In this document: one piece after another, positions 21,278 to 27,762 of the stretch | Layout: the number at the start of each line of letters is the position of its first letter | Numbering within the stretch: the stretch's first letter is position 1 | From: Escherichia coli | GTDB lineage: Bacteria > Pseudomonadota > Gammaproteobacteria > Enterobacterales > Enterobacteriaceae | Length of the DNA stretch: 64,000 bases | Assembly (NCBI RefSeq): GCF_003018255.1 | Contig: NZ_CP027440.1 | Strand: one strand, 5' to 3' | The notes under the pieces: generated by a model | The model's input: only the letters and a program-made list of their open reading frames with translations | Told to the model about the DNA's origin: nothing | Database searches by the model: none | Made by a program: the position numbers and the translations under genes

Positions 21278-22918
21278 ATGGCAATCCACAATCGTGCAGG
21301 CCAACCTGCACAACAGAGTGATTTGATTAACGTCGCCCAACTGACGGCGCAATATTATGTACTGAAACCAGAAGCAGGGAATGCGGAGCACGCGGTGAAA
21401 TTCGGTACTTCCGGTCACCGTGGCAGTGCAGCGCGCCACAGCTTTAACGAGCCGCACATTCTGGCGATCGCTCAGGCAATTGCTGAAGAACGTGCGAAAA
21501 ACGGCATCACTGGCCCTTGCTATGTGGGTAAAGATACTCACGCCCTGTCCGAGCCTGCGTTCATTTCCGTACTGGAAGTGCTGGCAGCGAACGGCGTTGA
21601 TGTCATTGTGCAGGAAAACAATGGCTTCACTCCGACACCTGCCATTTCCAATGCCATTCTGGTTCACAATAAAAAAGGTGGCCCACTGGCAGACGGTATC
21701 GTGATTACACCGTCCCATAACCCGCCGGAAGATGGTGGTATCAAGTACAATCCGCCAAATGGTGGCCCGGCTGATACCAACGTCACTAAAGTGGTGGAAG
21801 ACAGAGCCAACGCACTGCTGGCTGATGGCCTGAAAGGCGTGAAGCGTATCTCCCTCGACGAAGCGATGGCATCCGGTCATGTGAAAGAGCAGGATCTGGT
21901 GCAGCCGTTTGTGGAAGGGCTGGCCGATATCGTTGATATGGCGGCGATTCAGAAAGCGGGCCTGACGCTGGGCGTTGATCCGCTGGGTGGTTCCGGTATC
22001 GAATACTGGAAGCGCATTGGCGAGTATTACAACCTCAACCTGACCATCGTTAACGATCAGGTCGATCAAACCTTCCGCTTTATGCACCTCGATAAAGACG
22101 GTGCGATCCGTATGGACTGCTCCTCCGAGTGTGCGATGGCGGGCCTGCTGGCACTGCGTGATAAGTTCGATCTGGCGTTTGCTAACGACCCGGATTATGA
22201 CCGTCACGGTATCGTCACTCCGGCAGGTTTGATGAATCCGAACCACTACCTGGCGGTGGCGATCAACTACCTGTTCCAGCATCGTCCGCAGTGGGGCAAA
22301 GATGTTGCTGTCGGTAAAACGCTGGTTTCATCTGCGATGATCGACCGTGTGGTCAATGATTTGGGCCGTAAGCTGGTAGAAGTACCGGTAGGTTTCAAAT
22401 GGTTTGTTGATGGTTTGTTCGATGGCAGCTTCGGCTTTGGCGGCGAAGAGAGTGCAGGCGCTTCCTTCCTGCGTTTCGACGGCACGCCGTGGTCCACCGA
22501 TAAAGACGGTATCATTATGTGTCTGCTGGCGGCGGAAATCACCGCTGTCACCGGTAAGAACCCGCAGGAACACTATAACGAACTGGCAAAACGCTTTGGT
22601 GCGCCGAGCTATAACCGTTTGCAGGCAGCAGCGACTTCCGCACAAAAAGCGGCGTTGTCTAAGCTGTCTCCGGAAATGGTGAGCGCCAGCACCCTGGCAG
22701 GTGACCCGATCACCGCGCGTCTGACGGCGGCACCGGGTAATGGCGCTTCTATCGGCGGTCTGAAAGTGATGACTGACAACGGCTGGTTCGCCGCGCGTCC
22801 GTCAGGCACGGAAGACGCATATAAGATCTACTGCGAAAGCTTCCTTGGTGAAGAACATCGCAAGCAGATTGAGAAAGAAGCGGTTGAGATTGTTAGCGAA
22901 GTTCTGAAAAACGCGTAA
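21278..22918 (+). CDS. pgm: Phosphoglucomutase
   Basis: Track ORF 21227..22918 trimmed to the ATG at 21278: [27 protein letters not shown]...; TPSHNP active-site motif present. Confidence 0.93.
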
Positions 22919-22931
22919 ACATATCAAATAA

Positions 22932-22965
22932 GAAAAAGGGCGGTCGGAAGATCGCCCTTTTTTGC
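22932..22965. terminator. Bidirectional terminator between pgm (+) and potE (-)
   Basis: A5, GGGCG-gtcggaagat-CGCCC hairpin, then T7; it is the only element in the 56-bp pgm-potE spacer. Confidence 0.7.
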
Positions 22966-22974
22966 TTTGCTTAA

Positions 22975-24294
22975 TTAACCGTGTTTATTTTTCAGTTCAA
23001 AGCGTGGTGAGACCAGACCATACAGTGTCCAACCGAGGAAGGTCACGATGGAACCGTATAGCATGGCTTCTTCCCCGGATGAGTACAGCGCATAAAAGCT
23101 GTACATCGCGCCAACAAAAGCAACAAAGTTTGCAACTTTCGCTTTTGAGGGGGGCACATTAGCGACCTTCTGAATAATGACTAATGCCGCCATTGACAGA
23201 ATATACGGAATGATATTGGTCACCACGGCCAGGTTAACCAGCACGTTGAACTGACTGTTCAGCGACGGGCTAATGGTCATCAGTGATAATCCGCTCTGGA
23301 TGATGACAATGGTCAGCATTCCCTGTACTGGTGCATCGACTTTGCTCACACGGGAGAAAATTTTCGGGAAGTACCCTTCATCGGCAGAAGATTTAAACAC
23401 CTGGGCAATGGTGAACTGCCAGCCAAGCAGCGAACCGCAGCAGGACATCACCATCAGCGCCATAATGACTTTACCCACTTCCGGCGTGAACATCTGCGCG
23501 AAGGCCAGACCAAATGGTGCCGTTGAATTTGCCAGCTCCATATTTGGCACAATCCCGGCAATCACGTTGGTGGAGACGATATAAATCACCGCCGCACCTA
23601 ACGTACCGCCAAGAACTGCAATCGGCACGTTACGTTCCGGGTTTTCAACTACTTCGGCGTTGGCACAGGCTGACTCCAGACCGAGGAAAGCCCACAACGT
23701 CATGGCGATGGAAGAACCTACAGCGCTAAAGAACGGCACATGGTGCGGGTTCCATGAGTTAGCGTATAGCGTCGGGCTAAACCAGAACCAGCCGATAATG
23801 CACAGACCGACGACCGGAATAATGACCCCCCACACAGTAATGCTACTGATTTGCCCGGTAATGCGCGCACCACCAAAGTTAGCCACGGTACAAATCCACA
23901 GCACTCCGATGGTCGCAAGACCAATCTGCACTGGCGACAAACTCGCGCCGAGCAGTTCGGTGCCGTAACCAACCGCCGAAATAGCAATCGCGACGTTAGC
24001 AATCAGCAGCGAGACACCGTAGGTGTAGTTCGCCATAAAGTTCCCGGATTTACCGAAAGCATACTCCGCATAACCGCCCATACCGCCTGATTTACGGCTG
24101 AACATACCGCATTTTGCGAATGCCCATGCCAGTGCCATTGAGCCTACGGCTGTCACCAGCCAGGAGATAATTGAGATTGTCCCAACTTCGGCAAGCTTTG
24201 TCGGCAGCATGATGATACCGGAGCCCATCATGTTGACCATCGTCAGTATGGTTAACTGAACGACGCCCATCTTATTCGATTTAGCCTGACTCAT
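22975..24294 (-). CDS. potE: Putrescine/ornithine antiporter
   Basis: 439-aa APC-family transporter ORF MSQAKSNKMGVVQLTILTMVNMMGSGIIMLPTKLAEVG... Confidence 0.95.
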   Translation of the reverse strand: MSQAKSNKMGVVQLTILTMVNMMGSGIIMLPTKLAEVGTISIISWLVTAVGSMALAWAFAKCGMFSRKSGGMGGYAEYAFGKSGNFMANYTYGVSLLIANVAIAISAVGYGTELLGASLSPVQIGLATIGVLWICTVANFGGARITGQISSITVWGVIIPVVGLCIIGWFWFSPTLYANSWNPHHVPFFSAVGSSIAMTLWAFLGLESACANAEVVENPERNVPIAVLGGTLGAAVIYIVSTNVIAGIVPNMELANSTAPFGLAFAQMFTPEVGKVIMALMVMSCCGSLLGWQFTIAQVFKSSADEGYFPKIFSRVSKVDAPVQGMLTIVIIQSGLSLMTISPSLNSQFNVLVNLAVVTNIIPYILSMAALVIIQKVANVPPSKAKVANFVAFVGAMYSFYALYSSGEEAMLYGSIVTFLGWTLYGLVSPRFELKNKHG

Positions 24295-26489
24295 AATTTT
24301 TCCCCTTTCAACAGGGTGCTTTGCGCATCACGAGGCTTGATGACATAGCACCAAACTTGCTTACGACCATCATGTTCTTCGATATAGACACCCTGCAGCT
24401 CTGGTGCAAAACCTGGCAGCAGGTTGATCCCTTCTTCCAGAGCGCTGAAGTAACGCAGAACAGCACCACCCCAGATTTCACCCGGAACAACACACAGCAC
24501 ACCCGGAGGATAAGGAAGCGCACCTTCGGCAGCGATACGGCCTTCTGCATCCGGCAGACGAACCAGCTCCACTTCATCGCGTAAATAGGCGTAGTTGGCT
24601 TCTTGTGGATTCATGCTTACGCGTGGGAAGTGTTCCTTACGGAACATCTCTTTTTGCAGTTGTTTCACGTTGTGACGGGCATACAAATCATGCATTTCCT
24701 GACACAACTGACGCAGGGTATAACCGGTGTAGCGCTCTTCATGCTGTTTGTAGATGGAAGGCAGTACTTCTGATAATGGCGCGTCGGACTCAAGCAGTTT
24801 TTCGAAGCGTACCAGCAGAGCAACAAGTTGCTGAAGTTTGGCCATATCTTCTGCCGGAGTCAGCAGAAAGAGGATGGAGTTAAGATCGCATTTTTCCGGC
24901 ACTACGCCATTTTCGCGCAGGAAGTTAGCAAGAATCGTCGCGGGTACACCGAACGCTTCATATTCGCCGTTACGTGCATCAATACCTGGGGTTGTCAGCA
25001 ACAGTTTGCACGGATCGACAAAGTATTGATTCTCTGCATAGCCTTCAAAAGAATGCCAGTGCTCACCTGGTACAAACTGGAAGAAGCGCAGATCAACCGC
25101 AATTTGCGCCGTTTCATACGACTGCCAGGGTTTACCATCCACCAGTTCAGGTACGAATGGACGAATATGCTGACAGTTATCGAGGATTAGTTTGCGGGCA
25201 TTAATGCCATTTACCACACAATCCATCCACATATTACGACCGCTGACACCTTCATGCATTTTGGCGTTGATATCCAGTGCGGCAAACAGCGGATAGAACG
25301 GGCTGGTGGAGGCATGCATCATAAAGGCGTTGTTCATGCGTTTGTGCGGTACATAACGCTGTTGCCCTTTGATATGGCTGTCTTTTTTATGGATTTGTGA
25401 AGTCTGGGAAAAACCAGCCTGCTGTTTATGCACAGATTGCGTAACCAGAATACCCGGATCGTTCTCATTAAGATCCAGCAACAGTGGTGAACAGTCCGCC
25501 ATCATCGGGATAAACTGCTCATAGCCGACCCATGCGGAGTCAAAGAGGATGTAGTCACACAGATGACCAATTTTATCCACCACCTGACGGGCGTTATAAA
25601 TCGTACCGTCGTAAGTGCCTAGCTGAATAACGGCGAGGCGGAAAGGACGAGCCTCTTTTGCCCGCTGCGGTGCGAATTCCGCGATCAGTTCACGCAGGTA
25701 ACTTTCTTCAAAACAGTGAGCGTCAATACCACCGATAAAACCATACGGGTTACGTGCGGTTTCCAGATAAACCGGTGTCGCGCCAGCCTGTAGCAACGCT
25801 CCGTGGTGGTTAGATTTGTGGTTATTGCGGTCAAACAGCACCAGATCACCCGGTGTCAGCAGGGCGTTTAAAACCACTTTGTTAGAAGATGAAGTGCCAT
25901 TTAAAACGAAGTATGTTTTATCGGCATTAAACACTTTTGCCGCATGTTGCTGTGCAATGCATGGCGCGCCTTCGTGAATCAGCAGATCGCCCATCGCTAC
26001 GTCGGCGTTGCACAAGTCAGCACGGAACAGCGCCTCACCAAAGTATTCCACAAACTGATTCCCCGCGGGATGGCGACGGAAAAATTCGCCGCCCTGATGA
26101 CCGGGGCAATCAAACGCGCTGTTACCCTGATTGACATAATCGACCAGTGCGCGGAAGAAGGGCGGGCGCAGTTGCGTTTCATAATGGCTGGCTGCGGTTT
26201 CTAACTGACGACCATAAAATTCTCGTCGCGATTCGCAATTCTCAAAGACACCCGAAATACGGGGCAAATACTCTGCGGGTACACGTTCTTGATTTTCAGT
26301 AGCAATAAATACCGGGATGCCATAACCCGTGGCATCGATTTCATCGAGTTTTCCGCGTGTAACATCGTTGAGCGATAAAACTATTGCCGCCACATCGATA
26401 TTACTGTTTTCATTAATATAGATACATTCTCGCTGCGTGGTAAAACAGTCCGGGCAAGAATCACTAACCGCAATTTTTAATTTTGACAT
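24291..26489 (-). CDS. speF: Inducible ornithine decarboxylase
   Basis: Track ORF 24291..26567 trimmed to the ATG at 26489: MSKLKIAVSDSCPDCFTTQRECIYINENSNIDVAAIV..., 732 aa; its stop overlaps the potE start (ATGA). Confidence 0.93.
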   Translation of the reverse strand: MSKLKIAVSDSCPDCFTTQRECIYINENSNIDVAAIVLSLNDVTRGKLDEIDATGYGIPVFIATENQERVPAEYLPRISGVFENCESRREFYGRQLETAASHYETQLRPPFFRALVDYVNQGNSAFDCPGHQGGEFFRRHPAGNQFVEYFGEALFRADLCNADVAMGDLLIHEGAPCIAQQHAAKVFNADKTYFVLNGTSSSNKVVLNALLTPGDLVLFDRNNHKSNHHGALLQAGATPVYLETARNPYGFIGGIDAHCFEESYLRELIAEFAPQRAKEARPFRLAVIQLGTYDGTIYNARQVVDKIGHLCDYILFDSAWVGYEQFIPMMADCSPLLLDLNENDPGILVTQSVHKQQAGFSQTSQIHKKDSHIKGQQRYVPHKRMNNAFMMHASTSPFYPLFAALDINAKMHEGVSGRNMWMDCVVNGINARKLILDNCQHIRPFVPELVDGKPWQSYETAQIAVDLRFFQFVPGEHWHSFEGYAENQYFVDPCKLLLTTPGIDARNGEYEAFGVPATILANFLRENGVVPEKCDLNSILFLLTPAEDMAKLQQLVALLVRFEKLLESDAPLSEVLPSIYKQHEERYTGYTLRQLCQEMHDLYARHNVKQLQKEMFRKEHFPRVSMNPQEANYAYLRDEVELVRLPDAEGRIAAEGALPYPPGVLCVVPGEIWGGAVLRYFSALEEGINLLPGFAPELQGVYIEEHDGRKQVWCYVIKPRDAQSTLLKGEKL

Positions 26490-26746
26490 TTTCCATCTCT
26501 TTATTTTGGGTAATAGCAGGTCCTCAATTTCTCGAATGAGAAATCGATCGTGCCGGAAAAAAAGCAAAGTTACCCCGCTGATAAATTAATCAGAAGTTTG
26601 CTTTTTTCAGAATGCAGAAACCCTTATCAGTCCGGTGGCTGATAATACAAGGGTTAACAGAGAATGAGCACTGCGGAATACAGGCATATGCCTGTAATAC
26701 AGAGAGTCAGGAAGACCTGTACGCTGAAGTGCCCTTAGTCGGTAGA

Positions 26747-26851
26747 CTAACGGGCATTGAAGAAGTGAAAGTCGAAGCTATTGCGATGAGCAAACTTCAT
26801 AATATGAGTTGTCCGCCTTATATGGGGCATAGTGCGGCTGTTATTTTCCAT
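26747..26851 (-). CDS. speFL: speF leader peptide SpeFL (34 aa, ornithine-sensing arrest peptide)
   Basis: Hand translation of the minus strand from ATG 26851 gives MENNSRTMPHIRRTTHIMKFAHRNSFDFHFFNAR followed by TAG, about 260 nt upstream of speF and absent from the ORF track because it is under 60 aa. Confidence 0.8.
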   Translation of the reverse strand: MENNSRTMPHIRRTTHIMKFAHRNSFDFHFFNAR

Positions 26852-27021
26852 TTAATTTACCTTTCCTGATGTGAATGAAGGTGAAGGTATTCTATCCAGG
26901 AAATACGGTTGAACTGTGAAGGTGATCAATAAAAAATGATCAATCTTAATTTATTTAATGATGAGCTTTTTACTCAGTAATATAAAATATTGAATTGTTA
27001 TTTTTGTGTGTTGTTTAAGAT

Positions 27022-27050
27022 AAAAAGCCGTATTTATTATTACGGCTTTA
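27022..27050. terminator. Terminator downstream of kdpE (end of the kdpFABCDE operon)
   Basis: A5, GCCGTA-tttattat-TACGGC hairpin, then TTTA; it sits 35 bp after the kdpE stop. Confidence 0.6.
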
Positions 27051-27084
27051 ATTAATAAAAGGCAGGATGTATTGAAATTAATAT

Positions 27085-27762
27085 TCAAAGCATAAACCGA
27101 TACCCAATACCGGTTTCAGTAATGAAATGGCGAGGCCGGGCCGGGTCCTGTTCCAGTTTTTGTCGCAGATGCCCCATATAAATACGCAAATAATGACTGT
27201 GTTCGACCGCGTTTGGCCCCCACACCTGGTTAAGGAGCTGGCGCTGGGTGAGCACTTTTCCCGCATTATTAAGCAACACTGCCAGCAGGCGGAACTCAAT
27301 CGGGGTGAGATGCACCTCTTCCTCGCCCCGATGGATCACACGAGCTGCTAAATCGACGGTAACATCGGAAAATTTCACCAGCGGATCGGGCGCGGCGGTG
27401 GCGGAGTGGCGACGTAAAGCGACGCGCAGACGGGCCTGCAATTCGCCAATGCCAAACGGCTTACTCAGATAATCATCCGCTCCGGCATCCAGCGCGGCGA
27501 TTTTGTCGCTCTCTTCGCTACGTGCGGAAAGCACAATCACCGGCACCGCGCTCCACTGGCGCAGGTCGCGGATAAACTCAATCCCATCACCATCGGGCAG
27601 GCCGAGATCGAGAATAATCAAATCTGGCTTACGGGTAGCCGCTTCCAGCAAGCCGCGTTGCAGCGTTTCGGCCTCAAAGACGCGCATACCGTCGCCTTCC
27701 AGCGCCGTGCGCAGAAAGCGACGAATAGCCTGTTCATCTTCAACAATCAGAACGTTTGTCAC
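27085..27762 (-). CDS. kdpE: Two-component response regulator KdpE (OmpR family)
   Basis: 225-aa ORF (M)[30 protein letters not shown]...; the start is GTG at 27762, overlapping the kdpD stop (GTGA). Confidence 0.93.
   Translation of the reverse strand: MTNVLIVEDEQAIRRFLRTALEGDGMRVFEAETLQRGLLEAATRKPDLIILDLGLPDGDGIEFIRDLRQWSAVPVIVLSARSEESDKIAALDAGADDYLSKPFGIGELQARLRVALRRHSATAAPDPLVKFSDVTVDLAARVIHRGEEEVHLTPIEFRLLAVLLNNAGKVLTQRQLLNQVWGPNAVEHSHYLRIYMGHLRQKLEQDPARPRHFITETGIGYRFML

Follow-up and report, generated by a model that had tools for sequence, protein, structure and literature searches.

The window, i.e. the whole 64,000-nucleotide stretch of Escherichia coli DNA analysed here, raises a question of local gene order: its phosphoglucomutase gene pgm and its putrescine-ornithine antiporter gene potE face each other tail to tail across a very short spacer, at a place where K-12 is known to carry additional small genes. 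The original prediction took the absence of ybfP and ybfG as a mark of a non-K-12 strain, and proposed that the K-12 genes are a later insertion at a terminator-defined hotspot or were deleted here. The genes around the junction (SeqA, Pgm, PotE and SpeF) were identified by NCBIfam equivalog models, and the features used below are the following.

21278-22918, + strand: pgm (phosphoglucomutase), 546 codons, ATG at 21278 and TAA at 22916-22918; NCBIfam TIGR01132, 1074 bits, and RefSeq annotation of identical matches.
22919-22974: pgm-potE spacer, exactly 56 bp between the stop codons as read from the sequence.
22933-22963, both strands in principle: a single intrinsic-terminator hairpin of type T1, called from fold energies, a + strand terminator prediction and mismatch counts; its parts are A5 (22933-22937), stem GGGCGGTC (22938-22945), loop GGAA (22946-22949), stem GATCGCCC (22950-22957) and T6 (22958-22963).
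22964-22968: equivalent of the left boundary of the K-12-type insert, where the megablast matches of island-bearing genomes stop (alignment).
22975-24294, - strand: potE (putrescine-ornithine antiporter), 439 codons, its stop seen as TTA at 22975-22977; NCBIfam NF007938, 856 bits.
24291-26489, - strand: speF (inducible ornithine decarboxylase), 732 codons, start and stop read; NCBIfam TIGR04301, 1430 bits.
26747-26851, - strand: open reading frame of the speFL leader peptide (MENNSRTMPHIRRTTHIMKFAHRNSFDFHFFNAR); the same gene is annotated speFL in SMS-3-5.
27085-27762, - strand: kdpE, the last 143 bp of which (27085-27227) recur, as a decayed second copy, within the K-12 insert.

The two convergent stops (22918 and 22975), the 56-bp spacer and its single hairpin could all be read from the sequence as they had been described. 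The hairpin has a stem of 8 bp (six G-C/C-G pairs, one G.U and one U-A), lengthened by A:U pairs and closed by the GGAA loop, that is, the GC-rich stem of at least five pairs and the short loop of an intrinsic terminator. A U-rich tract lies directly 3' of the stem on both strands (UUUUUUGCUUUGCUU on the + strand, UUUUUCUUAUUU on the - strand), and the arrangement of the stops around one hairpin with a 5' A-tract and a 3' T-tract is the one expected of a bidirectional terminator. As RNA of the pgm strand, the hairpin folds with -22.9 kcal/mol (z = -4.3; 1 of 200 shuffles as good) and, on the potE strand, where an A.C mismatch splits the stem, with -17.2 kcal/mol (z = -3.2; 2 of 200 shuffles as good); the consensus scan called a terminator on the + strand only. 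"One bidirectional terminator" is a fair description of the spacer sequence, and the shared GC-rich hairpin with its A-tract and T-tract most likely ends the transcription of both pgm and potE. In an Rfam scan of positions 22600-27300, no known small RNA reached threshold in the spacer; the sub-threshold matches to MicX (23 bits, gathering score 75) and STnc320 (22 bits, gathering score 50) reflect the hairpin. At the other end of the operon, the speFL reading frame is intact, so the ornithine-sensing regulatory leader of speF appears to be present in the window.

K-12 does carry ybfP and ybfG between pgm and potE: in place of a 56-bp junction, 1,747 bp separate the two stops in K-12 MG1655. 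The window is 95-97% identical to K-12 across the region, and its strain is not K-12. The MG1655 region b0688-b0692 shares with the window pgm, potE, speF, speFL, kdpE and the pgm-side terminator T1 (1 mismatch), whereas the window lacks a 1.69-kb block made of a REP pair, the ybfP lipoprotein gene, the ybfG DUF2625 pseudogene, a 3' relic of kdpE (kdpE'), the repeat R' and a second terminator, T2. The K-12 spacer runs from T1 through an inverted REP pair, ybfP, the convergent ybfG and a "winged-helix" fragment to T2 and potE, which, with the repeats named, gives the layout T1 - REP pair - R - ybfP - ybfG - kdpE' - R' - T2 - potE. The product of ybfP is a 164-aa lipoprotein with no Pfam family, ybfG/ybfH is a DUF2625 pseudogene with an internal stop, and DUF2625 is the only Pfam family found on the insert. 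Megablast and alignment showed that pgm-side homology between the window and island-bearing genomes stops at window positions 22963-22967, after TTTTTTGCTT.

Direct repeats, which had been suggested as a check, are indeed found at the boundaries of the K-12 insert. T1 and T2 form a repeat of 31 nt, 81% identical, sharing ATCGCCCTTTTTTAC exactly (15 bp in K-12), and nested with it is the pair R/R' of 43 nt, also 81% identical, consisting of a REP arm followed by AACGAAC..TTTG.CAACAAAC. The paired inverted palindromes GCCTGATGCGCTACGCTTATCAGGCCTAC ... GTAGGCCGGATAAGGCGTTCACGCCGCATCCGGC, which correspond to the REP consensus, occur in K-12, strains E69 and AF39 and the divergent Escherichia L006, and queries containing REP units matched at least 40 places per genome. 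These REP/BIME repeats flank T1 in the island-bearing haplotypes and are absent from the window spacer. No integrase, transposase or recombinase is present in the insert, for which the RefSeq annotation lists only the lipoprotein, DUF2625 and the kdpE fragment, and its ends show neither a short exact target-site duplication nor terminal inverted repeats, the boundaries being imperfect direct repeats (terminator and REP flank). A mobile element or genomic island was considered for the K-12 insert, and the missing mobility genes and target-site duplications rule it out.

How the two arrangements are distributed was read from a census of 5426 complete E. coli genomes. The window arrangement, pgm-T1|potE-speF-speFL-kdpE (form A), is present in 3196 of them (59%), including O157:H7, O111:H8, ST38, Nissle 1917 and many others. 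The K-12 type, pgm-T1-REP pair-R-ybfP/ybfG-kdpE'-R'-T2-potE... (form B), was counted in 1851 genomes (about 34%) as those holding at least 80% of the K-12 insert, a count that includes the three genomes of form D (pgm-...-ybfP-ybfG-kdpE); insert carriers comprise K-12 derivatives, many commensal and ETEC strains and SMS-3-5. Two further forms lack speF-potE: pgm-T1-REP pair-R-ybfP-REP pair-kdpE (form C) in 247 genomes (about 4.6%) and pgm-T1-REP pair-kdpE (form E) in about 58 (about 1%), the latter figure being 305 matches less the 247 form C genomes which also show that join. Finally, form A' (the E69 type), pgm-T1-REP pair-R-T2-potE, with two terminators and without ybfP/ybfG, was seen in 2 genomes. 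Altogether, 296 of the 5426 genomes gave no speF-potE match whatsoever, and in these kdpE adjoins pgm or ybfP (e.g. loci L002, L093 and L092). Strain HS, which also carries an IS1 in the interval, is one of the genomes without speF-potE.

The direct pgm-potE junction is the commonest E. coli arrangement, the absence of ybfP/ybfG is ordinary and the K-12 state is a minority. The idea that this absence marks the strain does not hold, since most E. coli genomes have the direct junction and the insert occurs well beyond K-12; the junction tells nothing special about the window strain, whose layout is the usual one for E. coli. Earlier reports place ybfP among the accessory genes enriched in phylogroup A and note that speF is often a pseudogene. 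The pgm-potE difference is essentially a known presence/absence polymorphism, the accessory status of ybfP/ybfG and the kdpE-like fragment being already in public annotation, and the locus shows only familiar kinds of bacterial genome variation. For users of speF-potE phenotypes, or of the K-12 gene order as reference for the species, it matters that about 5-7% of complete E. coli genomes are without the inducible ornithine decarboxylase/antiporter operon.

Outside E. coli, the locus was examined by a Pgm scan of one genome per species, which gave 80 loci annotated by tblastn; E. fergusonii and the named cryptic-clade species are not among them. The next conserved gene after pgm is potE in 38 of the 80 loci, with spacers mostly of 39-164 bp, and these loci include E. 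albertii (57 bp), Citrobacter braakii, C. sedlakii, Enterobacter, Leclercia, Atlantibacter and Cedecea; kdpE directly follows pgm in another 33. Nearly every outgroup spacer contains a hairpin and a T-run, of unrelated sequence. Only the E. coli loci gave YbfP and YbfG, neither of them lying beside pgm in 77 other species, and a search of 5.8 billion proteins found YbfP in just 27 clusters, all E. coli-like. A distant YbfP homologue (P0017, 63% identity) was considered as an outgroup copy and rejected, its genome being an ordinary E. coli (seqA 99.8% identical to K-12). In Salmonella (L014, L023), Kluyvera (L033, L041, L048), a Citrobacter and Intestinirhabdus (L019 and L070 between them), the pgm-potE spacer holds a conserved gene of 158-161 aa of the family PF12900 (Pyridox_ox_2, pyridoxamine-phosphate-oxidase-like), joined in Kluyvera by a DUF1294 gene. 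From these gene orders and spacer contents, it follows that the window order is the general one for Enterobacteriaceae and that small differences in cargo recur at the spacer. The hotspot part of the original prediction is supported by this recurrent variation; the simple arrival of a cassette in K-12 fits less well with what the insert itself contains.

The fragment annotated by RefSeq as a partial winged-helix protein in K-12 corresponds to the last 44 codons of kdpE, with 40 of 44 amino acids identical by BLASTP. We take it to be the pseudogene listed as ybfI; no literature linking ybfI with kdpE was found. At the DNA level, the relic can be aligned with kdpE over 143 bp counted from the stop codon, as far as the breakpoint ...CA[T/C]CTG | CCGGATGCGGCA, which lies within a REP. 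K-12 and SMS-3-5 have this breakpoint in common, as well as derived substitutions in their relics, yet the two relics are 7% diverged from one another and one of them is frameshifted; the common breakpoint and substitutions, together with this divergence, indicate that the relic probably stems from a single old event. Its place downstream of ybfG implies that ybfP-ybfG would once have adjoined kdpE in a haplotype without speF-potE. A synthetic junction query, composed of the ybfG 5' end, the spacer and the relic continued into full-length kdpE, was covered end to end in 3 genomes, so that the predicted parental haplotype exists; one of them, CUWW10, is annotated pgm - ybfP - DUF2625 (intact) - kdpE - kdpD. 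The relic is thus a worked example of a gene fragment that correctly predicted a rare surviving haplotype.

Taken with this surviving ybfG-kdpE haplotype, the relic suggests that the K-12 layout is best read as an old chimera, composed of two alternative haplotypes, and not as a cassette insertion; its small extra genes would belong to an older version of the locus. In such a scheme, DNA of the form D type (ybfP-ybfG-kdpE) would have been joined, inside kdpE at about codon 177 and at a REP, to a T2-potE-speF haplotype. The join looks like one homologous crossover plus one illegitimate joint, and not like transposition or site-specific integration. The adjacency of R' and T2 would need an A'-like parent; A' could itself derive from form B. 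A deletion between R and R' would yield the arrangement of E69. Likewise, a deletion between T1 and T2 in a two-terminator haplotype would yield exactly the window junction, i.e. the T1 stem-loop followed by the potE-side flank, and homologous recombination in the flanks would afterwards have shuffled the presence and absence of the insert among lineages. We give a probability of roughly 0.8 to this overall account, in which an ordinary majority junction belongs to a small set of haplotypes, form B is chimeric and the repeats serve as substrates for deletion. A side observation was made on a metagenome contig (L095, about positions 780-960), where a second, apparently independent kdpE 3' relic of about 90 bp lies between REP pairs beside the true kdpE end; it is a hint that the 3' end of kdpE has undergone REP-associated rearrangement more than once.

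The origin of the direct junction itself depends on the hairpins. Two types of the 20-nt hairpin exist, T1 (GGGCGGTCG[G/C]AAGATCGCCC) and T2 (GGGCGATCATTC[A/G]ATCGCCC). T1 comes after pgm in all E. coli haplotypes as well as in L006, which is without speF-potE; in K-12, SMS-3-5 and E69, T2 stands before potE, and E. albertii has T2 as its only terminator here. The window hairpin differs from K-12 T1 at one position, from K-12 T2 at six and from E. albertii T2 at five, and the T2 hairpins of K-12 and E. albertii differ from each other at one. When nine direct junctions of E. coli were read base by base, the window and all 8 others showed a T1-type hairpin followed by the potE-side flank. No single T2-type (E. 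albertii-like) direct junction was found in E. coli with a designed query, whose best full-length matches reached 94.7%, the value that six stem-loop mismatches give. The potE gene lying beside T2 in K-12 is of the E. coli type (98-99% identical to form A strains, 88% to E. albertii), which makes T2-potE look like the native linkage and T1-potE like the recombinant one. We lean slightly to the conclusion that a secondary collapse between T1 and T2 produced, or produced anew, the direct junction of E. coli.

This conclusion was weighed against a simple insertion, in which the direct T1 junction is ancestral and vertically inherited and the K-12 DNA (REP pair, ybfP, ybfG, kdpE', R' and T2) entered later right after the T-tract. 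The direct pgm|potE order of E. albertii and of about half of the sampled Enterobacteriaceae speaks for it, as do the confinement of YbfP to E. coli-like sequences and the absence of YbfP/YbfG beside pgm in the other species. Moreover, the positions of T1 in L006 and of T2 in E. albertii are orthologous and their flanks homologous, so that T1 could simply be the E. coli variant of one terminator of the common ancestor, the direct junction then being vertically inherited. Also against the collapse, the bases from the T-tract to the potE stop in the sampled form A genomes differ at 2-3 positions from the flank of K-12 T2, and none of these genomes is therefore a recent deletion derivative of a K-12-like form B. 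An inserted segment, however, would have to have arrived with a kdpE 3' fragment and with a second terminator one mismatch from the E. albertii type, placed beside an E. coli-type potE; T1 is otherwise always linked to pgm and the REP pair in the speF-potE-less haplotypes, and both a mobility gene and a target-site duplication are missing. We consider the simple insertion a serious competitor with a little less than an even chance. The alternative of insertion or deletion posed at the outset is thus answered in part: the outgroups favour the direct gene order as ancestral, and the T1 hairpin type of E. coli fits a secondary deletion at least as well.

Such a deletion should not be confused with a recent, strain-specific one, in which the window lineage would have lost a K-12-type island and the junction would be a fresh scar. 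The T1/T2 repeats could mediate such a loss, and the window hairpin with its TTTTTTGCTT tail is identical to T1 of AF39, which bears the island or ybfP. An identical 86-bp junction is nevertheless common to the unrelated Ec15103, WGS1363 and ST38 (the last with differing alleles in the left flank), and O157:H7, O111:H8, Nissle and others have the same architecture; being as widespread as 59% of genomes, the junction is therefore old and not a private event. A fresh loss in the window lineage is in our view very improbable. An assembly or reading artefact, by which a collapsed repeat would have produced the short spacer, is suggested only by the repeats (REPs, T1/T2) of the other haplotypes, and as 3196 independent complete genomes share the junction, one of which matches the window at 100% over 1,056 bp and over 3,301 bp, its chance is practically nil. 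The secondary T1 x T2 collapse can also be placed in a wider frame, in which the pgm-kdpE interval is an old, maintained multi-haplotype polymorphism of Escherichia and the clean majority junction is a T1 x T2 recombinant scar and not the ancestral state. The acid-inducible speFL-speF-potE operon and the ybfP-ybfG cargo would then have been gained, lost and combined through recombination at the duplicated terminators and REPs. We regard this wider reading as rather doubtful; if true, it would add a small, if elegant, detail to the population genomics of E. coli.

The flanks of the junction were also compared. Over the pgm 3' end, the identity between K-12 (form B) and O157:H7 (form A) is 99.6%, and the Pgm and PotE proteins of strain A31 (form A) carry accessions identical to those of K-12. 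With such mosaic flanks, ordinary homologous recombination has clearly shuffled the presence and absence of the insert. The use of flanking haplotypes to tie the island to a lineage was given up, the mosaic flanks being uninformative in this respect.

Some peculiarities of individual alleles were noted on the way. The potE-speF allele of the window (23100-26400) is rare and divergent, with matches of at least 99% over 3.3 kb in only 5 of the 5426 genomes; its identity is 96.4% to K-12 and 93-95% to most genomes. The last 480 bp of potE are at most 96% identical to every other sampled E. coli, and parts of speF are 98.6-99.6% identical to SMS-3-5. This rarity and patchy identity suggest a mosaic or introgressed speF-potE operon. 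The last third of pgm (22200-22918) is unusually polymorphic in E. coli, with identities down to about 95% between strains against at least 99% for the adjacent seqA, which is consistent with recombination breakpoints clustering beside the variable interval. Strain E69 (L005, 1857-5594) has its two terminators separated by nothing more than the REP pair and R; its speF-potE differs from that of the window as much as the E. albertii operon does (85-91% identity at the DNA level), although its kdpD is about 96% identical.

Compared with known systems, the window hairpin resembles the shared bidirectional terminators of convergent genes by its GC-rich stem, its GNRA-type tetraloop, its A-tract and T-tract and its position a few bases from both stops; it differs from them on the potE strand, where an A.C mismatch lies inside the stem and the U-tract is weaker and broken up. 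The K-12 form is similar to the products of homology-facilitated illegitimate recombination and to REP-associated rearrangement junctions, in that kdpE coding sequence is newly fused to a REP on one side while homology is available on the other, and in that a gene-fragment relic and no mobility genes were left; this likeness is drawn from the end products alone. At a larger scale, the pgm-kdpE interval behaves like the accessory "regions of genome plasticity" at E. coli core junctions, where a fixed junction receives a few alternative sets of cargo. It differs from other such regions in being tiny (0-1.7 kb, or 3.9 kb with speF-potE), in having no phage, IS or integrase content and in being bounded by a terminator and REP repeats instead of tRNA genes.
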